Assembly (NCBI RefSeq): GCF_006345805.1
Contig: NC_042999.1
Coordinates: forward strand, 47,554,001-47,618,000
Origin: Octopus sinensis
Taxonomy: Eukaryota
Reading direction: 5' to 3'
Length of the DNA stretch: 64,000 bases
Position numbers and translations under genes: made by a program. This document shows positions 2,938 to 64,000 of this stretch, piece after piece (position 1 is the stretch's first letter; each line of letters opens with the position of its first letter). A model generated the notes under the pieces. It saw nothing but the letters and a program-made list of their open reading frames with translations, was not told the DNA's origin and searched no databases.

Positions 2938-5139
2938 TCAATCTTTCAACCAAACCTCTTTCTAGCATAAAAATTGACATCCTCTCAAAAGGGCTCAAGT
3001 TTACACCAACTCCACACAGAGCCAACCTAAATGAAATCAAGGATAATATAACAGAATTTTGCAGAAAATTAAGACTAGCAGAAGCATAAACCAGTTTCAA
3101 TACTGAAGATGAATCACTAGTCAAGAACAAAAGTGAACACATCCCACACAGAGGAAGAAATAAAGATCTTGACGAATTCTGTAACCACATTGAGAACTTC
3201 CCCTACCATACTATACATAAACAGAAAGCTAACTCAAATTTTAACACTACACAATGGAAAGAACTGATAGAACTTCAAAATGATGAGGATATAACCATTA
3301 AGGAAGCAGACAAGGGAAATGCAGTTGTAATAATGGATACATCATACTACAGAAATCTTGTAATTTCCTTGCATGATGACGACCTACATTATGAAAAAAT
3401 TACCAACTACACCCCACAAAAGATAACGGAAACTCTATCTTCACTAATTAAAACCCATGAAAAGGAACTAACAACCAAAGAGATTGACTTCCTAACAAAC
3501 TTTAAATGCAAACCTAGCCTTTTCTATGGTCTGCCAACAATTCATAAAAGTCAAATTATAAATGAAACCATTAAAAAATCACCAAAGACATACATACACA
3601 CACCTAACCCGGGGGACCTAAAACTACGACCCATTGTAGCTGGCCCAACCTGTGAAACACACAGACTAAGTCTACTTATGGACATCCTCCTGAAACCCTT
3701 CCTTAAACATATCGATAGACATATCAGAGATGACTTAGATATGTTAAACCACCTTCCAAAAAAAGCCAAGGAAGAAACAATCCTGGTTTCATTTGATGTA
3801 GTCAACTTGTATACCAGTATACCTCATAATTATGGACTGGAGGCAATACAATTCTGGTTAGACCAATTTCCGGAAGAAATACCAAAAAGGATCAGTAAAG
3901 AATTCATTACTAAATCAATTGAATTCATCCTACACAATAACCACTTCATGTTTGACAATACATTTTACCGTCAAAAATCCGGAATTGCTATGGGTACAAG
4001 GGCAGCACCAGTCATTGCGAACTTAACAATGGGATACATGGAAATAATCATTTACCAGGAATCTTTATCAATCTTTGGAAACCCCTCTCTCAATACATAA
4101 AAGAGAACTGGAAACGATTCTTAGACGATTGTTTTATTCTCTGGAATGAAAACACAGATAAACTCCTAAAATTTAAAAACCTATTGAACAGCATAAACCC
4201 AAATATACAGTTCACAATGGAATACAATCAAAAGGAGCTCCCGTCCTTAGATATACTAATTAAAAAAATTAACCTTAAAATAGAAACAGACATTTTCTAC
4301 AAAGCCACAGACGCCAAACAATACCTTCTCTTTAATTCATGCCACCCAAGACACACTAAAGCAAACATCCCCTTCAACCTTTCAAGAAGGATATGCACAG
4401 ACATTACCCAGCTCAACTCATAGAGGATGGGATCAGACGTGCAAAAGAAATCAACATAGAAACTTTAAGAAAAGTTCAACACCACAACACACCTTCCCCG
4501 AAAATACTACCTTACATATCTACATACAACCCCAGAAACAAAGAAGCCTTCACCATCATCACCCAGAATTTACCAATACTTCATAAAAACCCCAAATTAA
4601 AGGAAATTCTAAACATACACCAAATCATTAAAAGCTACAAACAGCCTAAATCACTTAAAAAGATTCTCACAAAGGCAAAATAGTCTTCTGAAATTACGGA
4701 TGCAAAAGTAAAAAAATGTGGTAGATCGAACTGTGCAACATGTCCTAACCTGCTAGAAGGATCAGAATTCCTCTTTAAAGAGGGACAGAAATTCAAGATC
4801 AAATCTAACTTTCCTTGTGCCTCTGAAAATATAATTTATGTCATAAAATGCTCGGGCTGCCACCAAGACTACGTGGGTTCCACGGGACTATCATTCAGAC
4901 GTAGATGCACACTGCATCGACAACAGATTGCATTCCCAGAATATAGAATGATACCTTTTAGTGAGCAATTTGAGAAATGCGCAAAGCAACTACTACCACA
5001 ATTTTTAATCTTTCCATTCTACCAATGTGCTTTCGGATCATCAACACAAATTAGACTAAACAAGGAAACATTCTTCATTGAAAAGTACATGCCCAAATTC
5101 AACCATCCGAACATACTGATACAGAGAAATTCACATTAA
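2866..5139 (+). pseudogene. PLE reverse transcriptase + GIY-YIG endonuclease ORF, disrupted
   Basis: PLE RT motifs and FLDD. Stops at 3087 and 4681, frameshift near 4090, apparent deletion near 4400. Confidence 0.92.
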
Positions 5140-5472
5140 GGGAAAAGGAAAAAAAATTTTAAGCGATTATCTCCCTTACACCGGAAGAAATCACCCACAA
5201 CCTTCCCTTATTTAGAACTCTCCGGAGCATAAACACAAGGATAACTCTATTCAACATAAACATAACGTCACAAGAAATTTGAAAAGCTAAATGCGAAACC
5301 GGTCTTTCTTTAAAAATTATGTCATTATGAAGGAAAAAAAAAATTTTTTTTAATTTTCTAATATTCTTCAGACATATTGACGCAAATATATATATTTTTT
5401 AACATTTAAGCCTTCTGTCGTTTTTTCACTATTTTTATATATTCACCCACGTGCTTTCACAATCCAACTTTC
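4873..5472 (+). repeat. 3' pseudo-LTR of PLE
   Basis: Direct repeat of 943-1550, followed by (TA)n. Confidence 0.95.
5272..5310 (+). ncRNA. Minimal type I hammerhead ribozyme motif (U3:A8 variant) in pLTR
   Basis: aagaaa(t)-TTGAAAA-gc-taaat-gc-GAAAC-cg-GTC-tttctt. Copies at 1342-1380 (one substitution) and 894-932 (minus strand). Confidence 0.65.
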
Positions 5473-5591
5473 ATATATATATATATATATATATATACAT
5501 ACATACATACATACATGCATACATACATACATGCATATATACAAATATACGTACGTGTACATATATATATATATATATATATATGAATACA

Positions 5592-8364: not shown

Positions 8365-8365
8365 A

Positions 8366-8779
8366 GGCGCAGGAGTGGATGTGTGGTAAGTAGCTTGTTT
8401 ACCAACCACATGGTTCCGGGTTCAGTCCCACTGCGTGGCACCTTCGGCAAGTGTCTTCTACTATAGCCTCGGGCCGACCAAAGCCTTGTGAGTGGATTTG
8501 GTAGACGGAAACTGAAAGAAGCCCGTCGTATATATGTATATATATATATGCGTGTGTGTGTTTGTGTGTCTGTGTTTGTCCCCCTAGCATTGCTTAACAA
8601 CCGATGCTGGTGTGTTTACGTCCCCGTCACTTAGCGGTTCGGCAAAAGGGACCGATAGAATAAGTACTGGGCTTACAAAAACAATAAGTCCCGGGGTCGA
8701 GTTGCTCGATTAAAGGCGGTGCTCCAGCATGGCTGCAGTCAAATGACTGAAACAAGTAAAAGAGTAAAAGAGTAAAGAG
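8366..8779 (+). mobile_element. tRNA-headed SINE, family A
   Basis: A-box-like TGGATGTGTGG, B-box-like GGTTCAGTCCC, internal (TA/TG)n and AAAGAGT tail. Homologous to 34931, 43089, 63137 and 10965(-). Confidence 0.9.
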
Positions 8780-9014
8780 AATATGTATGTCTGTGTATGT
8801 GTGTGTGTGTGTGTTTTGCGGGAGTTGTGTGTGCGTGTCTGTGTATATTTGTATCTGGGCACACCAACAATAAAGTATTCACATTGTACGAAACAGAACG
8901 CACGATTAGCAATCCATTGAATTTGTTGCACAGTAAGTGAACAAATGGAAATCTGTTGAGTAACTGTAAGGCTGCTACTTCTCCTAGAACTTCAACTACT
9001 GCTAACGATAATAA

Positions 9015-9346: not shown

Positions 9347-10016
9347 TCTATTATATAAAATCCGTTCGGTCTGTCTGTGTGTGTCTTCTACAATCTCGTG
9401 CATCCTCCATCCGATTGTACTCTTTGCCTTTCATCCTTTCGGGGTCAATAAATTAAGTACCAGTTACGCACTGAGGTCGATGTAATCGACTTAATACCCA
9501 GGTATGTCCTTGTTTGTCCGCTCTATGTTTAGCTCCTTGTGGGTAATAAAGAAATAGGTATCAGGGCGTGTATAAGTCTTGAAAAAACTACAAAACTCGA
9601 ATCCAGGTGAGAATGCGATCGATAAAGCCGTTTTTGTCCTGCTTTTCTTCCGTCAACCTGTCCATAACTGCATCTTCCATTTTTTGCTGTTTTTGTACTG
9701 CTAAAAGGCACGTTTCTTTCCTGTCAAGCTTACTGTTTAAACCATGTTTGTGTTCTCCCAGTCAACAGCCTTATCATTACTGGTACTTTAAACTCTTCGG
9801 TTGCTTATTTGTGTGAATAAAATTGTTTCTTTTTGGAATAGAAAAAAAAGTCTATCTTTATTTCTTTTTTGGCTGGTGCATCAAATTTAGGTTTAATCAG
9901 TGTTTCTCAAAGGGGAGGCTTATGGGACGGTCGGACAAGTTGTTTTGAGAAAATTTGGTTTGAATGTTTGACAACTCAGCACCGTATATTGGGTGGGGGT
10001 GCGGGCGTTTTGCTCG
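9347..10016 (+). mobile_element. Putative non-autonomous Helitron, interrupted by a SINE fragment
   Basis: Starts a|TCtattatataaaatc..gtctgtctgtgtg, like the 5' end at 56486(-). Ends with a gcacc..ggtgc hairpin and CTCG|t, a CTAG variant. Confidence 0.45.
9421..9558 (+). mobile_element. SINE family B 3' fragment
   Basis: tttgcctttcatcctttcggggtc..aagtaccag..gtgggtaataaagaaatagg is the reverse complement of the 35398-35540 tail. Confidence 0.85.
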
Positions 10017-10964
10017 TATGAATATATAATATGATAATAACAATTGTTTGGATTACTTTGACAGCTACAAGTACTCACCATTTTGGTGGGATGTATCTAT
10101 TAAACAGTTGCTATTGTAATGAGATCTGAACAATGAAAGTTCGACAGGAACCGGACACTAAAATTTTGTTGTATTGCCTAAAGATTTTGCTGCCCAGAAT
10201 GCAATAAAATGTTCTGTAATTAGGATACAACAAGAGATAGCGGTATAAATTTGCTTTACCCATTAATCCACTTCAATATATGTAGGAAGCTCTTGTACAA
10301 GACAAAGCAGAAAGTGCTAATAATGAAATATTTATAAATTCTAATAATAACTCTAAAAAGCTAAATGCAATATATATGTCTATTTTCAAATAAAATGCAA
10401 ACAAAAAACTGGGTTTCATTATATTCTCAGCTGAAATCTCATTTGCGATATCTATACTGTTTTCTTTTTTTTAAGTATACATATGTGTGTGCATGTGTGT
10501 GTGTGTATGTATGTGTATGTTTGCATGTTTTTTGTGTGCGTTCATATACTTTTTGTAAACATATTTATATATATATATATATATACATGTATGTGTATGC
10601 TTATGTGCTTTTTTGCTTTTATGTGTGTTTATATTCCATGGGAAGTGAATGCTTATACGACTGTACTAATAAAGTGCAATTCATTTATGTGAGAATCTGT
10701 GTATTTGATGAATGGCAGTATGCTAATACTCTGTCTCTGTTCAGGGAGCGGGTAATCGATCGCTATTCAGTCAGTAATAAAGGCTCAAAGTACTCAGAAT
10801 TATTTTTCATTTATAACTACAGTGAGAAAAAAAAATTGTCTTTTGCTGGCTCTACATTTCTCAGTGAGACAGAATTATGCTTTTCTCAAAAACGCCTGCT
10901 GTATGGTTGACAGACAACCAATTTAACACCTTTTAGTGCTTCTATAAAGTTCTCTGTTCTCCTT

Positions 10965-11400
10965 TATCTTTTACTTGCTTCAGTCATTAGACTGCTGTCA
11001 TGCTGTGAAACCACCTTGGAGATTTTTTTATGGGATTAATCGACCCCAGAAACAATTTTCTTTAAGTACTGGTACTTATTCTTTGGGTTACTTTAGCCGA
11101 ACTGCTAAGTTTCGGGAACGTAAACACTCTACCATCGATTGCCATGCGATGGTTGAGGACAAACACAAAAACGATAATGCAACACACGCACACGCACTCA
11201 CGAATACACACACTCACACACACATTTATATATATATATACGACGGACTTCTTTCAGTTTTCGTCTACTAAATCTACTCACAAAACTTAGTTCTGCCCGA
11301 GGCTACAGTAGAAAACATTTATCCAAGCTGTTACGAAGGGGGACTGAACGCAGAACCACTTGGTGTGGAATCAGGCTTCGCACCAAACAGCCTACGGCTG
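10965..11400 (-). mobile_element. SINE family A, diverged copy
   Basis: Reverse complement of the 8366 element (cttctttcagttttcgtctac, actggtacttattc). Confidence 0.85.
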
Positions 11401-11429
11401 TTCATACACATATTCATATAAATATTCTT

Positions 11430-11583
11430 ACATTATTTACATTATTTACATTCGACGAATATTTGTCCTCATCTTGTTTGTTGTTAATATAAACATTCGG
11501 CTGATATACTCTCCAGCTTTCTTGAGGTGTTTTGGGGAAGTTTCGAACCTGGGTTCTCATTCCTAAGGTATTTTTAGATGCTG

Positions 11584-11656
<73 letters not shown>

Positions 11657-13367
11657 CTAGTTAAGAGTAGCAACATCACACTAGATAAAACCAATGAAAT
11701 AAAAGAATTAGACCAAAGCCAAACTTACAAATACTTAGGAATCCATGAACTAGATAAGACACAACACACACAAATGAAAGAGAAAATAAAAAATGAATAT
11801 TATAGACGAGTAAGATCAATACTAAAAACAGAGCTCAATGCTAAAAACAAGATAATAGGTATTAACGCTTTAGCTGTCCCAGTTATAAGTTACAGCTACA
11901 ATATCCTTAACTGGACACGAAATGAACTGACCAAAATAGATAGGGAAACAAGAAAAAATAAGGACAGGATCTAGGATGCATCATCCAAAATCTGACACAG
12001 AAAGACTATATATACAACGTATAGAAGGTGGCAGAGGCCTTATTCATCTGGAAAACTACTACAAAATAACCACCATAGGACTGCAAAAATATCTACTTCA
12101 GAAGAAAGGAAAACTGATACAAATAGCGGCAAAACACGAGCAAAACAAAAAAATTGTTCTCAGTCGTTAAGGAAGCTGAAAAATACAAACAAGAAATCAT
12201 ACCACCTAATAAATATGAAGAAGAAGAAGAAAAAGTTGAAGAAACAACAAAAGCTATAAAACAAATGAAATCCAAAGTAAAACTAGAACAGCAAAGAATC
12301 GTGATAAGACGATGGCAAGAAAAGCCCCTTCGTGGTAAATACTGGACTAAACTAAATGCAAAAGAAATAACAAAGAAAATCCCAGCAATGGTTGAGAAGC
12401 TCAGGACTCAAAGCAGAGACAAAGGGATTTTAATTGCAGCACAAGTCCAAATATCTCCCCACCAGAAATTACCAAAAACATGTAATGAAAAGAAATATAA
12501 CAAGTAACTGCAGAATATATGGAGATGGACAAGAAACAATAAATCATATTATCTCTGGCTGCCCAGTCCTGGTTAAGAAGGAATATATTCACAGACATGA
12601 CAGAGTTGGAACCTACATACACTGGAAGCTATGCCAACATTATGGAATAACAACAGAAAAAAGTTGGTATAGGTACACACCAGAAAAGGTCACAGAAAAC
12701 GAGAAAGCAACCATACTCTGGGATATGCCGATACACACAGATAGAGAAATTAAGGCCAACAGACCAGATATAGTTGTCAAAGATCATGAAGAAAAAAATG
12801 CTTTCTAATTGATGTATCAATACCGGCAGATGACAACGGTTCTCTAGATGAAATGGAAAAACGTTCAAAATACAAAGACCTGGAAATAGAGGTAACCAAA
12901 ATGTGGAATCTAAAAAAAGAAACAATTCCTATCATAGTAGGTGCATTAGGCATGATAAAAAAATATTCAGACAAATACATAACAAAAACACCAGGACTTA
13001 CAAACACATATAACATGCAGAAAATTGCACTACTAGGCACTGCACACATCCTACGCAGAACACTTTCCATACAATAACCATCAGAGCATCACAACAAATC
13101 ACAGCACATACCTAAGGCACACAGAGCTGCGCTCGGTAATGAAGTGAAAGCACGCTTTAAAAATAAAACTACTAAAAATAATAATAATAATAACATCGAA
13201 AAATACCTTAGGAATGAGAAACCTGGTTCGAAATTTCCTCCAGACACCTAAAGAAGGCTGGGGGGTATATCAACCGAATCGTTGTGTTAACAACAAACAA
13301 GATGAGGACAAATATCCGTCGGATGTAAATAATGTACATAATTCCTCATCTCTTAAATATAGAACTG
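11430..13367 (+). mobile_element. Composite insertion: inverted hammerhead-like repeat + R4/Dong LINE 3' fragment + hammerhead-like repeat, 13-bp TSD
   Basis: Arms ~11430-11588 and ~13190-13340 are inverted copies. TATAAATATTCTT occurs at 11417-11429 and 13368-13380. Confidence 0.75.
11657..13190 (+). mobile_element. R4/Dong-clade non-LTR retrotransposon, 5'-truncated (RT C-terminus, CCHC, restriction-like endonuclease), frameshifted
   Basis: YKYLGI, HHPKSDTERLY..EGGRGL, CRIYG..ETINHIISGC..YIHRHD, NRPDIVV, LIDVSIP, KYKDL, IPIIVGALG; ends in (TAA)n. Confidence 0.9.
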
Positions 13368-14789
13368 TATAAATATTCTTCTTGGCTTATATATGTAGCA
13401 TTTGTAAAAAAAATCAGGTAATTTTACTGATAACTGCATTTCAACATTACATAAAGTCAGTGCTTTAGCACGTAATTATTTAGTCATTGACATAAATGGT
13501 CTACTGGTCTGCCTTATTAATTACTCATCGGTAAACCTATTTCTGTGCAGACTATATGCGGGCTAAATACATTTTTATTAGAATTTTTCTTTTCCTAATA
13601 AAACAATAATAACATATATACAGCTGCATATCAGTTGAAATTTGTTCAATTCCGAAGTTATTTTCTTAATTTAGCTACAGATGTTTCCGTTTAAAAATCA
13701 ATAGTTTTTGGAAGCATGTGCTATTTTTCAATTTTTAATATCAATAATTTTATTTTATTTTGACTTAAATAGAGCTAACAATTTATAATTGAGAATTTTC
13801 TTAACAATTCGTCTATGTGAGCCGTTTGTGGGTGAGGTTCATTAACGTTGCTATTGTGTTAAGTCAGGTGAGCAACAGGAATATTTATAAATTTGCTGGA
13901 CCCATTGACTGGTGTCACTGATGCATCATAGGCCCAGCCTGAAATAACTTGCTTGCTAATAACTGCATGTTAAGTCTATATCACGAACATCAATTTAATA
14001 CTTGTGAAAGAGCGAAATCAACGAAATATAGACTGTCATGGTAAACGCAATAATTCGCCGCAAATTGAAAGAAAAATTAATAGCGCCAGTACGAGTTTCT
14101 TTACGTAACTAAAGAACTTAAATATCAATCAACTAGCAAGGAAAAAGTACTTCAACTTTCAGTTGATGTCCGTATGACAGCATTGAAAAATATGAATATT
14201 GGTACATTAAAAATGTTCCCTTCATTAGTGAGTAAGTATGTGTTAGGAGTAGCGCATACGTGTCTATAATATACGTGAGTGAATTAATATATATATATAT
14301 GTCAATAGATTAAAGGCAATTAACTTTCAATGATGTTAATATTAGATCGTCTTCCAAGGAAAATAGGTATAATTTTGAAACATGAGTTTTAGCGAGATAC
14401 TATAGAAAATCCTATTGTCGTATTATTTTCATTGAGATAGAGAAACATAAATAAATACTTGGATATAAAAAGAAAATTGTCATTATTTACAGCGAAACAC
14501 ATTGACGTTGCATTGGGCTTATTGAGACCCCTGTGAAAGGTATTTCCGATTATACTGCGAATGAAGACATTGAATATATGCGATAATTCAGAAACGATGT
14601 GACCATGGAATCTTTCTGTATATATATATACATATATATATATATATGTATGTATGTATATATGTATGTATGTATGTATATGCGTGTGTGTGTCTACGTG
14701 TTTATGTGTGTACGAGCGTGTGTCTATGTGTGTGCGTGCTTGTTTATATGTATATGTACATACATATATATATATATGCATGCACACAT

Positions 14790-20708: not shown

Positions 20709-22325
20709 CAGTGGCTTGCAAAAGTCTACACTCTCTTTGAAAATTTATACATTTTGTATAATTTAACAGGGAACAGCACATTTTTTCAATTCCGATGATT
20801 GTTAAATAATAAGCAGATCCATCACACTTTTCTTTGATATAAAAATTACATTTTAAAAATTTCACACTGATTCTTAAAATCATATAACTTACAAAAAATG
20901 TCTTTGGAAAAGTCTACACCCACCAGATATTATACTGTGTTATCAGGTAGTTTGTCATTGATGTATACAATCCAAAACAATCAAAAGTGACATGTGCCTT
21001 CTACCATAACAAACTTGGCTAGTCTAGTATTTTGCTATATAAGGTGATTTAACTGCCTACAAAATTATTCACCACGTGGTTTTTTTGGTATGTTGTTCTT
21101 TGAACTCTGACTGTAAACACAGGGTGTCCAACTCGGGAAAGAAAATGGGCAAGCCTCTGTCACAGGAACTTAAAAACCTCATTCAAAAGTACAATGAAAA
21201 TAATGGCTATAAAAAGATTGTAAAAGCTTTAGAATTGCCCCTAAGCACAAAACCATTGCTGCCCTACAAAGATCTGGGAGACCGAACAAAATTACCAGAA
21301 GGAATATAGTCAAAACTGATCCGGTAGGCAACATCCAACCCTAGTACAACCCTGGAAGACTTGAAAGCTTCAGTTTCCAGTACTGGGACAGATATCAATG
21401 CATCTACAATTTCCACAGAATTACACCGGTCTGGGATGCAAGGGAGGGTAGCTAGAAGAAAAAAGCTCTTTCTGAAGCCTATACACAAGCAAGCTTGGCT
21501 AAACTTTGCCAAAAGTCACATTAATGATTCCATGACCATGTGGTGAATGAGACCAAAGTCGAATTATTTGGAAATAATACAAACGCTACTTTTTGCGGAA
21601 AAAAGGTACTGCTCACCAACCTCGTTACACCGTCCCCACTGTAAAGCATGGCGGTGGCTCGGACACGCTTTGGGCTGTTTTTCAGCTGCAGGGCCTGGAG
21701 AGTTGGTAACCATCTAAGGTATCATGGACAGTGTCATCTCAAGCACCAAGAAATATTGGAGGCAAACCTGCTGAAGTCTGCAAGAGCTCTGCGCTTGGGT
21801 CGCAATTTCAAGTTTCAATAAGATAATGACCCCAAGCATGTGTCAAAAAACACTAAAACTCGGTTTGCTAGCAAGAAAATCATAGTTTTGGAGTGGTCCA
21901 GCCAGTCTCAATCCTATAGAAACTCTATGGCGAGATCTAAAGCTGTCTGTACACCGACGTTCCTTATCCAATATGACATAGTTCGATAAGTTCTGCCATG
22001 AAAAATGGCAAAAACTGTCAGCAGACCACTGCAGCAAGCTCCTGGAAGTCCATCCGACGCGTCTGTAGGCTGTATTTGACGCGGCAGGATCATCCACAAA
22101 ATATTAGCGGAAGGCATTCCAAAGGGGGTGTAGACTTTAAAAAAGACATCTTTCAAAAATGTTTAAGTATCAGTTTTAAATGTTTCAAATGCTTTTTTCT
22201 TTTATGTTTTAAATGAATGTGTTATAGATCAACAAATTATTAGAGATTAAAATATGTATTGTTCCTATCAAAATAAACAAAACACATCCAGTTTCCGAGG
22301 CGGTGTAGACATTTGCAAGGTGCTG
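20709..22325 (+). mobile_element. Tc1-family DNA transposon (IR/DR type), full length, transposase pseudogene ~21145-22130
   Basis: TA|cagtggcttgcaaaagtctacac ... gtgtagacatttgcaaggtgctg|TA. Internal repeats of aaagtctacacc. Peptides GYKKIVKAL, GRVARRK, ETKVELFG, PTVKHGGGS, DNDPKH, VLEW. Confidence 0.92.
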
Positions 22326-22988
22326 TATTTCTACCAATAGAATATGACTTTTACTTTAACGATACTGATATAACCGATTTTGAAAGTTTTTGAAATTTAT
22401 TTTCTAACGATAACAAAGCTTTGGTTTAATCTCAGTGTATTGTAGTTTAAAACTTGAAGTAGAGAAATGTTGTAAACAAAATTTAGTTATTTTCTTAAAC
22501 AGTATAGTTTGCACCTGTTAGTCTAGAATTCGATTTGTCCGGTTTGAAAATATACTTATATTATCTACATATGTTATTTAGACATAAGCCGAATATAGCA
22601 ACATTCTGACTGTATGGTAAGGATTAATTTGATTAAGTCCCTTTGCATTATCAAATATTCTTATGCGTCCTCAATTCGTATGTGAAATACAAGAACTGCG
22701 TTTTATTCCCACTGATGAGATACAACAGCTAAATTTTGTTTACACCTTTTCTCTACATCAAGTTTTAAACTACAATACACTGTTGAAACCAAAGATTTGT
22801 TATCATTAGAAACTTAATTTTAAAAACTTTCAAATCGGTTATATCAGTATCGTTAAAGTAAGTCATATAATTTTTAATAGAAATACAGTGCCTTGCAAAA
22901 GTCTACACATCCTTGGAAACTGGATGTATTTTACTTATTTTGATAGGAACAATTGATATTTTATTGCCACTGATGAGATACAACAGCT
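22258..22988. repeat. ~230-bp inverted duplication (22258-22486 vs 22729-22953); second copy flanked by a 30-bp direct repeat
   Basis: Arms align by eye. ttttatt(c/g)ccactgatgagatacaacagct at 22701-22730 and 22959-22988. Confidence 0.85.
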
Positions 22989-23474: not shown

Positions 23475-24498
23475 AGAAGGTGAATGAATTATCCTAGTAA
23501 TGGATAATTCAGTTAACCGATACCTGGGTAGCAAATTCCGTCAGAAAACACGATTGAAGCTATATGCCAAGGGCAGGGATCCCGTGTTCTCGTGTGTAAA
23601 TTTGTGTGTTTTGTTTAACTATGAATAAATGAAAGAATGGAGTCGAACGACGATTTTAACAAAATTCCTTTACTCTCGACACATGTTTCGAAGGCTGCAT
23701 ATTCCTAATTCCGAAGGAATAAAGGGTGCATTATGCCGCCATCTCATCAGGAAAGACAAGGAAGTTATGTCAGCACCATGAAGAGCAAAAACTTTTAGAT
23801 GACTGCCCACATGATGTCCACAGTAATAATGAGTGTTTCTTTAAAATATCCCGTTATAAGCAATGACGTCAAAGTTGGTTGGATGGAGAATGTTCTAAAG
23901 AGTTCATGATTTCAAATTTGGTTGGGAAGAGAAAGCTCTAGGAAGGGGATAGAGGGCAAGCTGTATTGTATGGGGATGCGTGGGTGTATTCTATTGTTAA
24001 TGAGTTTGAGTGCGTCTGTGTGTGTATGTATATAACTGGATTCGTGCCTCTGTGTGTGTGTGTGCGTGACTGTGTGTGTAGGGTGACAAATGTCAGAAAC
24101 ATTTAGTAGTGAGGTGACAAATTTGTGTCTGTTTGTTCGATTGTGGGTATGATAGAGAGAGAGATAGAAAGAGAGAGAGGTGGGGAGATGCAGAGAAAAA
24201 GAGGAAAACATATCCCAACAAATTTAGTAGTAATTCTTCATGTACGTAGTAGTAAAAGAAAGAAATTGTCTATGGTGGTGTTGTAGAAGTGAAACTAAAT
24301 TATTAAAATCAAAGAGGTTATTTATACTAATCATCATTCATATGAGAGGAAAGTATGTCTCTGCCAATGTTTGCTGATGAGATGGCGGCATAATGCACCC
24401 TTTATTCCTTCGGAATTAGGATTATGCAGCCTTCGAAAATGTGTCGAGAGTAAAAGGATTTTGTTAAAATCGTCGTTCGACTCCATTCTTTCATTTAT
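23475..24498 (-). mobile_element. Hammerhead-bearing PLE-type cassette with ~125-bp terminal inversion, in (TA)n
   Basis: 23625-23750 is the reverse complement of 24374-24498; TA tracts on both sides. Confidence 0.8.
23673..23755 (-). ncRNA. Type I hammerhead ribozyme with extended stem II
   Basis: Minus strand reads ctttc-CTGATGA-gatggcggcata...tatgcagccttc-GAAAC-atgt-GTC-gagag. Confidence 0.8.
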
Positions 24499-32714: not shown

Positions 32715-34930
32715 TTCACAATTCAGTCAATATAATATTTTTTAATAATAAATGTAATGTATATATATTTTTTAATATTCTGCAGTAATTCGAGGAAAAA
32801 TAATGTTATCGTATTATGCTATAATGTAACCGGAGCCACTCTGATACCAACATTATATACAACTTTTTGTATATCCTCCATAAGTAATGTTGAAACGGAT
32901 GTTTACAGATATAATGGTAAAAATAGAATATAGACTACATAACTGTAAGTTGATGTGAATAATATGCCTACTCGTATACAAAATTAATTCCGATAAACGG
33001 AGGAAAAATTTTTTTTCCGTAAGTGCAATAGAATTAATATAAAACAGGATTTCAACTTCCAGCTTTTGCTTTATTCTGAACAATAAATAATAAATTCGAT
33101 ATTCGGAAATCTTTTACTGGTTAAAAAATTATTGAAAAGAAAGTCGCCAGGAACTCCGGGAATAAAATTCTAATCAATCTACCACCAAGAATGATTTAAT
33201 GATATGTGAGTAAAGGAATAATAAAGTGTTGAGCACTTTTATTGTGACGTTTATTTACATCTTTACTGGATTTGTTGTTTCTTAAAGATGTCCATTTATC
33301 GATAGCATGCTTTTATAGAATGAATAATTAAAACAGTATGAATTAAAGTATTTCATCTTGTGCATAAACATATCCTTAATATATTCCGTATATTTTGGTT
33401 ATTCTCAATTTTTAACAGAATTACGCTTTATTGAATTAGACTTTCGAATGATAGGAAGGGAAATCAAATTCACGAAAACCAAGGCAGAATTTGTGACGTT
33501 TCTTTAAAACCTAAATGTATGTGCCGAGCGTTTTTATTTATACGTGATACCATTCAATTAGTGAATCATGTGCAATCGATTACACCCCAACATAAATTGA
33601 AGGTCGCATTCACATATAGGCGAAAATATATTAATCCTTTACAATTAAAAAGAACAAGACTCATTCGACATACATTCATAATATGAATTTAAATTGAGTC
33701 GATGAAATATTTTATCGTATTTATATATTCATATCGCAGAGGGTTCTAAATTACAACATTTAACTTAATTTTCATCAATTGGAAAATAACAATATATAAT
33801 TATTTCAGTAATTATAACACTTTCAATAGAGATACATAGAATTAGGGAATGTTATATTCGAATCTAAGTGGGAATTCTTTTAATTTTCATAATAAAGAAA
33901 AATCAGTGACCATATGAATGTATGATATGGAAATCGACGAACAGAATTTTACATTAATACTTGATTTAGATGTAGAATATTTTCACCATAAACAATAAGG
34001 GTGTACAGCTCGTAATCATATTTCAATTCGTTGGTTATATTTGATACAATTATAAGATACCATCAACGCTATGTAATTGGTTCCGCAGTAATATGGACTT
34101 TTGAGGAAATCATAAGCAAAACTCTTTCGTGGTTTCTTTTGTAGAACCATCTGATGTAGAGAAATAATGTCTGTATTCTTTTGTACTCTTGGTAATTTCG
34201 GCAGATGTTTCTCTGCCGACACTAGTAAAAATAATGCGAATTATTTACTATGAAAGGTCTTGTCAACTGATGTTGAAATATGTCTTACCAAAGTAGGACA
34301 TTTTTGAATATCAACGGCGTGCCGATCATAAATAATTATGAAGAGAAGGTTCTTTGGCTTTTTATATATATCTCTTAAGCTTATTCCACATTACGTCCTT
34401 TATATGCTACAGAAGCACAGCAGAATATACGATGAAGTATTCATAAAATCATGCACACACAACAAAACATACACGCACGGAAATAAAACTCATTTGACAC
34501 ATGGAAGTATTTTATGTCGAAAGGATGAAAATGTTGGAAATAGTTATCTGAATAATCTCGGCCTTCGCTAACATATAAGGTGATAGTCAACTAATTAATC
34601 TCATTCATTGCTTTATATCTATTTTCGAAATACTCTGAGTTCTGTGTATCAAGCTAATATCGTCAATTTTGTTAGTTATAAAACTTTATATTCATTTTTC
34701 AAGAATAGCAGAAATTATTGGTCACGTAATGCAATAGATGTTCTTCCTGTGTTAGAATATGCCACAACATCTGACAAAAAGAATAATCGAGGAGGTAAGA
34801 ATTGTATGAGTATTGAGAAATAGGATATCTTTGTAACTGACGCACAACTAAGTCAACGAATATTTTCTCTAACTTTAATTCAAAGAGTATACATTGTCAA
34901 GGACTTTGTAACCAAAATATACATACAGCA

Positions 34931-35350
34931 GGCGCAGCTATGGCTGTGTGGTAACAAGCTTGCTTCTCGACCACACAATTTGGGATTCAGTCCGATTACA
35001 TGGTGCTTTAGGCAGGTATCTTCTACTATAGCCTCGCGTCGACCAAAGACTTGTGAGTAGATTTGGTAGACGGAAACTGAAAGATGCTCGTCGTACATAT
35101 GTATATATATATACATATATAGCTATGTGTGTGTGTACGTTTCTTTGTGTCTCTGTTTGTCCCTCCACCACAGCTTGACAACCGGTGCTACTCTATTTAC
35201 GTCTCTGTAACTTAATGGTTTGGTAAAAGAGACCGATGAAATAAGTACCAGTCTTTAAAAAAAATGCCCATAGTTCGATACGTTCGACTAAAAATACTTC
35301 ATGTCGATGCCCCAGCATGGCTTCAGTCTAATGACTGATACAAAAGTAAG
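34931..35350 (+). mobile_element. SINE family A, diverged
   Basis: Collinear with 8366-8779. Confidence 0.9.
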
Positions 35351-35397: not shown

Positions 35398-35814
35398 TCC
35401 TATTTCTTCACTGCCCACAAGGGGCTACACACAGAGAAGACCACCAAGGACCGACAAACGGAGTAAGTCGATTATATCGACCCCAGTGTGTAATTGGTAC
35501 TTATTTAATCGATCCCGAAAGGATGAAAGGCAAAGTCGATCTCGGCGGAGTGTGAACTCAGAACAAAACGGCAGACGAAATACCTATTTTTTACTATCCA
35601 CAAGGGGCTAAACACAGAGAAGACAAACAAGGACAGACAAACGGATTAAGTCGATTGTATCGACCCCAGTGTGTGACTGGTATTTAATTTAATTGACCCC
35701 GAAAGGATGAAAGGAAAAGTCACCCCGGCGGAATTTGAACTCAGAACGCAGCGGCAGATGAAATACCGCTAAACATTTCGCCAGGCGTGCTAATGTTTCT
35801 GCCAGCTCTGCGCC
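35398..35814 (-). mobile_element. tRNA-headed SINE family B with duplicated 3' half
   Basis: Head ggcgcagagctggcagaaac..gagttcaaattcc. Body cctttcatcctttcggg..aagtaccag resembles the Meta-SINE core as recalled, not verified. Tail is present twice. Confidence 0.85.
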
Positions 35815-42400: not shown

Positions 42401-43088
42401 ATTTTTGTCTTTTAGGTAGGAATGGCTGATTTTAGCATGATAAGAATTAATGAGTCTTAAGATATTTGATGATTGTATTGAAGATAACGCGAAAATAAAT
42501 TTTATGTGGCTTCACAATGTTTTTTGTTTTTATTTAGAATACAATTTAAACGTACAATAATTATTCGACATGAAGAAATATAATAATGATATTCATCTTC
42601 AATTAATCAATGGTATTTTTTAAAAATTCAATTTTTTAATCAAAACTAAGAGATAAGAATATATATTCTCTGCTACCATATAGATATATGTAACTATATG
42701 TTTGACAAAATATCTATAACCTTATCACTTTCGAAAGGTGCTCAATAATTACTGACATTGAAAGTAGTTTTATTTATGTATTGTAAACTTTGTATGATCA
42801 TTTGGTCATAAAGGAACAAGTCTATTGTGTTTCTAAGACATATTATCAAAATGTAGCATCGTTGTAGAAAGAAGTCGAAGTTATCAAACAGTAGGAGCCG
42901 GATTCATTTGTTTATCAGCCAAAATACCACGAAAAAGTAATTGGTGGTACGGGAAGAAATCAATAAAAATTCAGACTTTTTTGAGTTTAACATGTCAGAA
43001 CATGACCATTAAAGACTACTTAATCAGAAGATGAAGAGGGAGCTCTATGCGACAGTTTGACGTCCACTATGTGATAGTAAAATTCCCA

Positions 43089-43495
43089 GGCGCAGGAGTG
43101 GCTGTGTGGTAAGTAGCTTGCTAACCAACCTCATGGTTCCGGGTTCAGTCCCACTGCCTGGCATCTTGGGCAAGTGTCTTCTGCTATAGCCCCGAGCCGA
43201 CCAATGCCTTGTGAGTGGATTTGGTAGACGGAAACTGAAAGAAGCCTGTCGTATATATATATATATATATATGTTTGTGTGTCTGTGTTTGTCCCCCTAG
43301 CATTGCTTGACAACCGATGCTGGTGTGTTTACGTCCCCGTCAATTAGCGGTTCGGCAAAAAGAGACCGATAGAATAAGTACTGGGCTTACAAAGAATAAG
43401 TCCCGGGGTCGATTTGCTCGACTAAAGGCGGTGCTCCAGCATGGCCGCAGTCAAATGACTGAAACAAATAAAAGAGTAAAAGAGTAAAAAGAGTA
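43089..43495 (+). mobile_element. SINE family A, young copy
   Basis: Highly similar to 8366-8779 along its full length. Confidence 0.93.
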
Positions 43496-44758
43496 TACAC
43501 ATTACAGTCTTCAAAACGTATACATACATTTGATACCTCAACTGCAGTTGCACTAATTAAAATAAGCACGGAATAGCTACGGTTGTTTACTGCTTTATTA
43601 TGTGTACTTGAATAAATTCAGAACCCTTCCGAGTTTACATAACAATATATGTAGATAAATTAGATAATAGAATCGGATGGCGAATCTAAGCTGCACAAAG
43701 TGTATAAATGGACTGCAACGTAAACGAGAAAAATATGATTCTGTGTACATCAAGTAAATTATCAGCAGTTTATTGTTTTCCTTATACAATAAAGACCATG
43801 TATTTCGTATTATTAGCTAAGCAGGCACATGAAACGAATACGTTGGCAGAGTATCGCTCTCAAAATGATGACATTTCCACATAAACTGAAGTACTATAAT
43901 ATACCAGCTAACTATTGAAACTCAATAAGTTGCTTCCCGCCGCCCCACGACCACCAGATTATCTAACTTACATCGGTACACATAAACACACATATTTACA
44001 CGTAAGGATAATGAACTGTAATGGACATTGTATGAAAAAGTAACATTTTAAGCCTGCTTCGTCATCGTGTGTGACTCGTCGATATTTCTAAGAAAATGGA
44101 AACGGCTTTGAAAACAACCTTTTACTTTCTCAATGCTAAATATAACATACTGAGTTCTAAATGAATGAATAAATGCGATACCTTGTAAAAATATATTAAT
44201 GACAAATACACAACCAATGACACATACACGTGCATACATACATATGTAAACATTATGGCAGGATTTTTTGGGGGGGAATTTGCTTCGTGACCACGAGGAC
44301 CCAGCTCCGATGCCACAGAGGACCACTTTAAGTAAAGTGAGATCAACCTGACAGAAACTGAACAAGAAAGATAGTTAGGTGGATTTTATCCATAAATCTA
44401 AAAGTAACGCTTTGGCTGAAATGCTGTGCCATATCAAATTCCTATTAAGATATTTGCCTGTGGAAACCTCATCAGCATCCACGTTAATCCACATACATTT
44501 AATTCAATGTGTAAGTCAACTGAATCGTCAAAATCAAAGTACATCTCACATTGCCCTGCGATCAGGCCGACACCTGCTGTGCATCAATTCAGAAAACGTT
44601 GATTTTATGGTGAGAGTGGGAGAGAGCGAATGACTATGAACAAAATATTTGAGTAGGTGGTTCAGCAAAAACTGAACGCTCATACGTTGTGATCGAGGGG
44701 AGAGTCCGCCATATACTGGTAAGTAGAGAGACAGATAAATAGAATAGAATAGAAAAGA

Positions 44759-46649: not shown

Positions 46650-46802
46650 GTCTATCTCTATCTCTCTCTTTATATATATATATATATAATATATATATAT
46701 ATAATATATATATATGCGTGGTTCTGTGGTTAGCAGCTTGCTGCCCAAGCATATGACTTCGGGTTTAGAAGTCTTCTAATATATCCTTATATATATATAT
46801 AT

Positions 46803-47477
46803 ATAACAATAATAAATCTCTGAGCGAGGTATAAACAGTAACTGCTCTATAATATAAGCGGGATCAGCCATCTGAATGTGGCTAGGGACAGGGCTGGGTG
46901 GTGGTGGTGTTACTGATGCATTTAGCCCCAGGCGACTATCGATGTCACCAGAAGAGCCGACACCCGGTGAGGCTGATCTCCCTTTGCAGGCTAGCAAGGA
47001 CACCGTGATGGTGTCGGCTCTTCTGGTGACGTCGATAGTCGCCTGGGGCTAAATGCATCAGTAACACCCCCACCACCCCGCCCTGTCCCTAGCCACATTC
47101 AGATGGCTGATCCCGCTTATATTATAGAGCAGTTACTGTTTATACCTCGCTCAGAGATTTATTATTGTTATCGAACGGATTTTCTACGCCAGTGACTGTG
47201 GTTACTGTGAAAATCTATATATATCTGGCCTGTACAGGAAGTCCCTCGGCGAAGAACGGTGCTTGTCATACGCTGACAAGAGGCAAATACCTCGAAACCA
47301 GTCCGTGTGTAGCATCCGTATCTTCGGTGAGGCTGATCTCCCTTTGCAGGCTAGCAAGGACACCGTGATGGTGCCGGCTCTTCTGGTGACGTCGATAGTC
47401 GCCTGGGGCTAAATGCATCAGTAACACCCCCACCACCCCGCCCTGTCCCTAGCCACATTCAGATGGCTGATCCCGCT

Positions 47478-47486
<9 letters not shown>
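46803..47486 (+). mobile_element. Retrozyme-like cassette: 360-nt unit, 1.45 tandem copies, with 162-bp 5' inversion, in (TA)n
   Basis: Direct repeat 46965-47126 / 47325-47486; inverted repeat 46803-46964 / 47010-47171; GC-richer than flanks; no credible ORF. Confidence 0.75.
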
Positions 47487-47563
<77 letters not shown>

Positions 47564-57906: not shown

Positions 57907-58239
57907 CGTATATATATATATATATGTGTGTGTGTGTAAATACATACATATGTATGCATGTATATAAATTCTGAGATGTAAGATTTTGCAAGATAATGAC
58001 TGGTCAATCACAATTTCTTACTCATCATCATCCGTAGCCGTGACTTAGTATGCTTAGTATGCATCTGTAAATTGTAGTAATGTTTATAAATAATAGTAAG
58101 AAAGACAATAACGACGAGAACAGTAACAAAAAAAGTATAAATAAAAACACTAATTATAATTGTTCAATAGCATGTCAGTCTATTACTTATAAAACCCTCA
58201 CATTTGTTACTTTCAAATGTGTTATTATCTGAGAAACAA

Positions 58240-59480
58240 CGTTTTTCCAGAAGGTATACCGAAGGGTGATGTAAGGTGGTAAATAGCAGCTGGGGGTGAA
58301 TCGAGCCGTTATATGAGAGTGTAAAGAGGACAAAAAAATAATAAACTTTCTTACGGCCAGGATTGACCACCAGAAGGTGTTCGACAGCGTTTCGCTCTCA
58401 TGGATACTGAAATCTTTCGACATAAATTAAGACACACCAGGAGTACTAAAATATATAATCAGTGACACACTACAAAACCAGTATAATATTGAATGATTAG
58501 TAAACAACGTTAAGACCTGCCCTACACCCACAAGAGGAGGACTTTTCCAAGGAGACACGCTACCTCTCACTGATTTTCTACTGAAAAACATGTTGACTGA
58601 AATGACTGTGTATTACAGATGTTGTATTTCCTATATATAGATGGATTAATTGTTCCTTTTTTTACTAAGAATATCACTGAACATGTAAACCTAGAAATTG
58701 TCCATTCTTTTAGCAAAGACATCAGGATAAGAATGTCGACCAATGTGCCAAAATGACATTGAAAAAAAAAGCCATTGAGTCAGGCACTAAAAACACTGCA
58801 CTCAGCACCGACGTTGAAACCAGAGAATTATACCACGATCTCCCATACAAATATCATTGAATAAACGAAAAAGCTTAAATACAACGCAGAAATGATGAAA
58901 TAAATGAGGAAATGTTCCAGGAACGTAAGCTAGCCATATCCTACTGCTTCAGCATAATAAACTGGAAGATTGGCAATTTGAGAAACTTAGCAATGAAAAC
59001 TAGCAAAATATTAACAGCTTATCGAAGTCACTTAGCCGCGACAAAATATACATACATAGAAAGAGAACTGACATAGATAGACAACGTCTATAAATTAGCA
59101 ACAATTGGACTAGAGAAATACATAAAACAAGATGTTGGCCACTATTACATGTCATAAAGCAACACAAAAACTATAAAACTCTGTCAACTAGGAATCTATA
59201 ATTTAGAAGACAGATATAAACTACAAAGTGGACGCAGATGACAACACATGTGAAATTATTAAAGAGATAAAGACAACATGACAACAGAATTACAAATTAT
59301 ACTAAAGAAGAAATGTAGAGAACTATTAGCCCATGCCCAATATCCTACAAGCCTTGGGAGAAAAGTGAGCGTAGGTGGAATTCTTCTATGGCTGAATGTT
59401 ATTAGGCAAAAAAAATACAATACAAACATTAATACGTCAAAAGACTCAAGCTAAAGACTGGAAGCAATACCCCCGCTTTA
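58240..59480 (+). mobile_element. Old, decayed R4/Dong-like RT fragment
   Basis: ARIDHQKVFDSVSLSWIL, GLFQGDTL, FLYIDGL, FSKDIRI and YKLATIGLEKYI; the last matches YKITTIGLQKYL at ~12060. Confidence 0.75.
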
Positions 59481-63000: not shown

Positions 63001-63136
63001 GTGAGCGTCAATGAATTTACACCGGTTTCTAGTAAATAACAGTTAAAATTATCGCAAGTCACAGCTGATCGTCTTAATCCTGAATGAGTTGATTGATAAT
63101 GTAGACGTAGTCAAATGATGCTTAAAAACTAGGATA

Positions 63137-63300
63137 GGCCTAGGAGTGGCTGTGTGGTAAGTAGCATACTTACGAACCACATGGTTCCGGATTCAGTCCC
63201 ACTGCGTGTCACCTTGGGGACGTGTCTTCTACAATAGCCTCGGGTCAAACAAAGCCTTGAGAGTGGATTTGGTAGACGGAAACTGAAAGAAGCCCGTTGC

Positions 63301-63362
<62 letters not shown>

Positions 63363-63560
63363 CTATTTGTCCTTCCAACATCGCTTGGCAACCGATGCTG
63401 GTGTGTTTACGTCCCCGTGACTTAGCGGTTCGGCAAAAGATACCGATAGAATGATTACAAGGCTTACAAAGAGTAAGTTCTGGGGTTGATTTGCTCGAAT
63501 AAAGGCGGTGCTCCAGCATGACCACAGTCAAATGCCTGAAATAAGTACAAGTGTAAAGAG
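63137..63560 (+). mobile_element. SINE family A
   Basis: Collinear with the 8366 and 43089 copies. Confidence 0.92.
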
Positions 63561-64000
63561 AGAGATAGATGAATCCATGACAGCTGTGAAATCTCAGCTG
63601 ATACTTTTATTTGAAAATATCTGACACAAGGCATATCGTTGTCAACATCAAATAATATTTAGATTGAGTTCACTATTGCAAACCAGCGAAAACAGCTGGA
63701 AACATAGAAAGAACGAGATTTGTATTAGCCTGCAGATCTCAAAAGAAATTGTATCCCTTAATGTATACATGTACACAACCATTTGATACCTCCCTTCTTC
63801 GAACGTATTTTTATTTCTAAATTAATAATATAAATCTTTTTTTATGAATTATTACTTAATCACGTCACCAAATTTATCACTAGGAGTCTGCGATAAATGA
63901 GGCTTAATAGATTTAAAAAGCGGTCAAATTACACGGGAATTTCATCCAGAGCCTCAGTTTGAAATATGATGTTCTCCTGCCAGTAACATATACTTTTGCA

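Follow-up and report, generated by a model that had tools for sequence, protein, structure and literature searches.

A 1,938-bp unit in the genome of Octopus sinensis has outer ends that were very probably produced by a single integration of the Penelope-like element (PLE) type, and we incline slightly to the view that the LINE fragment inside it was carried along as cargo of that integration. The unit lies in a 64,000-nt stretch of contig NC_042999.1 (the window), which was analysed as a whole. Between 13-bp direct repeats it consists, in order, of an inverted arm, (TTA)23, a 5'-truncated RT/REL LINE fragment, (TAA)5 and a direct arm. Its features, in window coordinates, are as follows:

11417-11429, plus strand: left copy of the target-site duplication (TSD), 13 bp, in an AT-rich stretch
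11430-11586, minus strand: inverted arm, pLTR-like, stopping at the tail-less end of its family
11486-11531, minus strand: degenerate minimal type I hammerhead of the left arm, with the core and the 3' side of helix I broken
11587-11656, minus strand: perfect (TAA)23, read as (TTA)n on the plus strand
11657-13077, plus strand: 5'-truncated Dong/R4-like LINE ORF (late RT/thumb, CCHC-type knuckle, restriction-like endonuclease)
13078-13157, plus strand: LINE 3' UTR, with high contig depth to about 13159
13158-13193, plus strand: degenerate TAA-like stretch (13158-13178) and then (TAA)5 (13179-13193), from reading the sequence
13194-13336, plus strand: direct arm, pLTR-like, delimited by arm comparison and contig depth
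13243-13288, plus strand: degenerate minimal type I hammerhead of the right arm, with a predicted cut after 13283
13337-13369, plus strand: 3' tail of about 33 nt, on the right arm only, delimited by the loose ends of its family
13368-13380, plus strand: right copy of the TSD, 13 bp, of which the first 2-3 bases match the end of the arm family as well

An earlier note on this DNA had described a unit of about 1.94 kb directly flanked by a 13-bp repeat, and this holds to the base: TATAAATATTCTT is found at 11417-11429 and at 13368-13380, identical at 13 of 13 positions and 92% A+T. When pairs of 25-mers were drawn at random from the window, 13 or more exact bases were common to both in 45 of 20,000 draws, and among pairs free of microsatellites at least 10 bases were shared in 12 of 14,831. 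Because these frequencies are low, an exact match flush with both ends is improbable by chance. Since copies of the arm family stop at 13369/13370, microhomology instead of duplication may account for the opening 2-3 bases of the right TSD copy. We consider it very unlikely that two arms and a LINE landed together by coincidence as separate insertions and that the 13-mer match arose by accident in AT-rich DNA. The great abundance of all three components and the base composition of the repeat would assist such a coincidence, but the match is exact and flush in the face of the random draws, sequence comparison showed no inner duplications at the remaining junctions within the unit, and the asymmetry between a tailed and a tail-less arm fits one event. 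Contig runs X1 and X5 contain the right junction plus 603 bases with no differences, and the insertion is therefore present in both; among the flank pieces listed, run X10 covers only 13586-13857, with four differences and one gap. No empty site was seen among the contigs. The insertion site itself adjoins the 5' end of an old copy (10950-11425, minus strand) of a SINE-like family of about 420 nt, with further copies at 8365-8784, 34930-35343, 43088-43496 and 63134-63562.

The inverted arms span 185 nt each (11432-11616 and 13158-13342) and are 85% complementary. A search of the window with the arm sequence gave two matches, both of them the arms themselves, and no tandem arm was found at the locus. 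To place the arm in its family, public runs were aligned to 12750-13950 at 80% likeness. Three contig runs were used, and the raw-read run X22 was left out (56 reads placed, almost none on LINE or arm). The contig alignment excluded the repeat at 13162-13203, i.e., the LINE-arm junction. In the three contig runs, depth over LINE and arm lies 4-5 orders of magnitude above the single-copy flank; these summed depths are not copy numbers, and their ratios to the flank differ about five-fold among runs. In X1, depth is 9,618 at 13160-13200 versus more than 1.2 million on either side, records being cut at the repeat there. These data show that the arm belongs to a very high-copy family.

The family has two 3'-end sites about 30 nt apart. 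Loose contig ends cluster at 13336/13342 and at 13369/13370 in all three contig runs, followed by diverse AT-rich sequence, and contigs with a loose end at 13336 continue with the letters that close the left arm. From this match, the left arm corresponds to the short end and the right arm to the long end, some 33 nt further on. The tail of about 33 nt is absent from the left arm, a point that the earlier note did not raise. These two ends bear directly on the possibility that the LINE's own machinery moved the unit, by 3' transduction through the downstream arm, the 5' inversion being due to twin priming. An RT and an endonuclease are encoded by the LINE, a relative of it (L002) has an internal inversion, and R4 elements generate 13-bp TSDs. 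However, both outer ends are the two preferred ends of the arm family, which largely refutes this explanation; the target is not a TAA repeat; and twin priming, as in L1, inverts an upstream segment without duplicating the 3' end. We regard it as highly improbable.

PLEs leave ends of this kind. Craig et al. 2021 (PMC8557442) give as typical an inverted, 5'-truncated copy and a tail of 30-40 nt on one end. Frangieh et al. (PMC11167929) place the tail between two RT start sites and describe cleavage and extension of both target strands in AT-rich DNA, and Arkhipova et al. 2013 (PMC3846280) report inverted pLTRs with TSDs of 9-10 bp. Since the inverted pLTR, the tail and the TSD match this published layout, a single PLE-type integration is very likely. 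A PLE-type 5' inversion in one event had already been suggested in the earlier note, and the two-end tail signature together with the single TSD points that way.

The degenerate hammerhead letters previously noted in the two arms were read again as given. At the core positions, the family majority departs from the right arm: among the differences listed (40 of 83), it has G at 13250 (92-96%), G at 13273 (89-93%), A at 13279 (98-99%) and T at 13252 (55-59%). Substituting the majority letters gives ACAC-CUGAUGA or CUGAAGA, an unpaired A, helix II and GAAAC-GUU-GUGU, and thus restores the core in all three contig runs. The consensus expected beforehand was CUGANGA with GAAAC, and a consensus lacking a core was to count against the proposal; with CUGAUGA or CUGAAGA and GAAAC in the majority, that objection falls away. 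Judged by its letters, the majority core is that of a minimal type I hammerhead as in PLEs. Both local arms deviate from it at core positions, and neither is predicted to be an active ribozyme. An Rfam search of the two arms gave no hammerhead (none among six weak matches), neither native arm folded better than its shuffles, and a hammerhead scan and motif search of the window returned matches at chance level only and missed both broken arms. Because the Rfam search was negative and the folds are no better than those of shuffles, the assignment rests on the majority letters of the family. Both arms have in common the minor family alleles at 13252 (about 42%) and 13321 (about 23-29%), and possibly a third at 13279, which is rare (at most 2.4%) and ambiguously aligned. 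These common alleles suggest that both arms were copied from one template.

An open frame runs through the hammerhead of both arms, at 13214-13369 (plus strand) on the right and in the corresponding frame on the left. Short ORFs with this motif are also predicted in related repeats elsewhere, and many of them stop at the homologous tail end. At least two copies of the motif are held by 12 of 54 arm-like ORFs from elsewhere, which suggests that tandem relatives of the arm family exist; two long matches, P0098 and P0135, proved to be unrelated repeats and were removed before this count. Searching with the open frame of the arm, we found no autonomous PLE partner, the matches being short spurious ORFs of related repeats. 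Likewise, no RT/EN protein carrying the arm translation was found, and the interior of the unit is a LINE ORF, not that of an autonomous PLE. In one predicted ORF, P0114, an N-terminal (internal) piece of a LINE RT is followed directly by a related, co-oriented hammerhead arm; this piece is not a Dong 3' end.

The enclosed LINE ORF falls into seven in-frame segments split by frameshifts; no in-frame stop occurs among the 452 codons read. The database protein P0001 matches one segment at 91% identity, and identities to the other 81 matches are 42-74%. Several homologues are RT proteins of about 1,200 aa, the full-length ones being single ORFs; the best PDB match is weak, to R2 (E=0.0017). We take the element to be Dong/R4, a name adopted from the earlier note and from general knowledge. 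RT, a CCHC knuckle and a restriction-like endonuclease in one ORF are the Dong/R4 layout, and the 3' end lies in TAA repeats, as it does, with a long (TAA)n, in one of two relatives (L001), the other being without its 3' end. From these sequence traits, Dong/R4 identity is plausible. The degenerate TAA-like stretch at 13158-13178 may be the LINE's own 3' end. Dong elements target TAA repeats (PMC3812793), and Dong-R4 and Penelope families are both listed as recently active in O. vulgaris in PMC13282606. L002 is the relative with the internal inversion: its positions 1-1830 run forward through residues 770-1148 of P0011 and then, reversed, through the partly overlapping residues 684-866. An older, stop-ridden LINE RT fragment at 58110-59183 of the window is 26-39% identical to the homologues of the focal LINE.

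How the LINE came to lie between the arms can be accounted for as follows. At a source locus elsewhere, a Dong element would have inserted into (TAA)n before an arm, and a read-through RNA comprising the 3' part of Dong, the TAA tract, the arm and its tail would have escaped hammerhead cleavage. A PLE RT/GIY-YIG protein, acting in trans, would have made a nick in each strand of an AT-rich target, at a distance of 10-13 nt. One nick would have primed at the tail end, with about 1.7 kb copied before a halt at 11657, and the other at the tail-less site, with about 150 nt and a portion of the tract copied. Joining of the two cDNAs head to head would have completed the unit, the filled-in stagger becoming the TSD. 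Uncut RNA is the main PLE substrate in vitro (Frangieh et al., PMC11167929), which speaks for this account. Since integration the locus has decayed by about 4-6%, and it likely does nothing now.

Several observations favour carriage as cargo. LINE homology begins at 11657, flush with the (TTA)n and with no plus-strand TAA between them, and a later insertion targeted to TAA would, we infer, usually leave plus-strand TAA there. The LINE has the same orientation as the tailed arm. The unit at 823-1448 of the window has the same layout, with the end of a GIY-YIG-like ORF in place of the LINE, and capture in trans between pLTRs, with a TSD, has been published: for Pen3a of Adineta vaga, PMC3846280 describes an NRPS gene and other sequences, non-coding DNA included, as captured in this way. 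That the same RNA served as cargo and as template of both arms falls, in our judgement, a little short of an even chance; that two RNAs were involved is improbable. The single-template version fits the alleles common to both arms, which the alternative of a later LINE insertion fits equally, and it needs later slippage because the left tract, with 23 perfect units (23.3 in all, at 11587-11656), is far longer than the right, with five. The description of the tracts as inverse to one another stands for the left, (TTA)23 on the plus strand, and in part for the right, where only five perfect TAA units follow the degenerate stretch. A second junction of a Dong 3' end with an arm was found neither in the window nor in a metagenome pattern scan (0 matches).

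The alternative with the greatest claim, which we think possible though the less probable account, reverses the order of events. A PLE-type event would first have made a nearly perfect palindrome of two head-to-head arms, arm-(TTA)n-(TAA)m-arm, flanked by its TSD, and a 5'-truncated Dong would later have entered the central TAA, removing or leaving no plus-strand TAA on its 5' side. The TAA targeting of Dong and the long terminal (TAA)n of L001 suit such an order, as do the somewhat lesser decay of the LINE compared with the arms and the much greater length of the left tract. A palindrome of another family with a near-zero spacer exists at 46803-47171, and P0114, one of the 54 arm-like ORFs, hints that arms can start near the tract. 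Yet the 5' junction of Dong would have to sit exactly at or beyond the centre of the palindrome, free of TAA, and the changes private to the right arm (at least 6-9 over about 170 nt, from 40 of 83 difference rows) fit the age of the LINE.

Nor are two ages demanded by the divergence clock. Between the two arms, 18 of 143 sites are different, equivalent to 6.3% each (interval 4.0-9.4%). Of 202 LINE sites on which its two closest homologues agree, 19 are different in the fragment, or about 4.2% (interval 2.6-6.2%), a range that overlaps that of the arms, and the overall estimate is about 3.7-4.2%; at 6.5% decay, finding no stop in 452 codons has P=0.01. Conserved columns from distant homologues give residue changes of 11-19%, depending on the threshold, and overestimate LINE decay. 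In a joint likelihood, the Bayes factor for a younger LINE is 1.6, and 0.7 if the clustered changes of the left arm count as one event. The evidence leans towards a LINE younger than the arms, and with a Bayes factor of only 0.7-1.6, the clock does not decide between cargo and later insertion.

Other inverted units occur in the window. At 823-1448, within the region 823-1566, inverted arms that are 93% alike (823-944 and 1330-1448) enclose an ORF end at 937-1206, whose GIY-YIG likeness comes from an Atlas lead at 0.90-0.91 and is negative in Pfam; a second, 95%-identical copy of the 823-1566 element with the same 5' start and no inverted arm lies at 4870-5489. The unit at 23625-24498 has inverted arms that are 96% alike, the left with an intact CUGAUGA...GAAAC core and a long helix II, and its low-complexity interior, in which no ORF was recognised, may be another instance of foreign DNA being enclosed. 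A pair of 240-nt inverted arms with 87% likeness lies at 22248-22963. The region 46780-47553 holds a near-perfect palindrome of 369 nt and, after it, one half again as a direct copy with 99% identity, an inverted-plus-tandem layout of the PLE type. At 35399-35767 a 183-nt unit is present as a tandem dimer, and a further partial copy lies at 9422-9561. No convincing flush TSD was found at five other units or copies in the window.

The locus is one dead, decayed insertion, and its outer architecture and pLTR-mediated capture have been published before; only the aspect of a LINE as cargo would be mildly new. In a literature search that covered titles and the starts of abstracts, with most subscription journals outside its scope, we found no LINE moved by PLE machinery. 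If the cargo reading is true, one class of retrotransposon was moved in trans by another. A further step, which we think unlikely, is that Dong recurrently enters the TAA tract of the hammerhead/pLTR family and that the chimeras form a hybrid family which Penelope machinery mobilises anew. A microsatellite-restricted LINE would thereby gain a route to non-TAA sites, and broken hammerheads would favour full-length copying. The high copy number of both families means that open questions about PLEs can be addressed by counting: whether the inverted 5' copy and the main copy come from the same RNA, and whether a terminal repeat alone is enough to mobilise any RNA upstream of it.

Compared with the PLE inverted insertions described in PMC8557442 and PMC3846280, the unit is alike in its head-to-head inverted repeats, its one-sided tail (30-40 nt in PLEs) at one of two family ends, its AT-rich target, the hammerhead of the family majority and its putative single TSD (8-10 bp in Adineta PLEs versus 13 or 10-11 bp here). 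Unlike the insertions covered there, it has no PLE ORF inside, its interior is a LINE fragment and its arms begin at a TAA microsatellite. The Pen3a capture of the NRPS gene (PMC3846280) likewise placed foreign sequence within pLTRs and one TSD without internal PLE sequence. There, however, the cargo lies between two direct pLTRs plus an inverted one, introns are kept and an empty allele is shown, whereas the present unit has one direct and one inverted arm around the 3' fragment of a LINE.

The hammerheads of metazoan PLEs (Cervera and de la Pena 2014, PMC4209133) are minimal: helix I is short, one base stays unpaired ahead of helix II, and the minimal helix III is palindromic. Ours resemble them in these features, with a helix I of 4-5 bp, and in motif pairs on opposite strands; they differ in that the cores are broken, the two motifs are separated by about 1.75 kb and not by 100-700 bp, and helix II is about 5 bp. 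Non-LTR retrozymes (bioRxiv 10.64898/2026.07.22.740005) are also non-coding, carry a type I hammerhead and derive from PLEs; the arms here are inverted instead of tandem, the hammerhead is of the minimal and not the canonical form, and the absence of a tandem arm rules out a tandem non-LTR retrozyme at this locus. With LINEs of the Dong/R4 clade, finally, the enclosed fragment has in common the layout of RT, CCHC knuckle and restriction-like endonuclease and an ORF that ends shortly before TAA repeats, and it differs from them in a 5' flank of (TTA)n, not (TAA)n.
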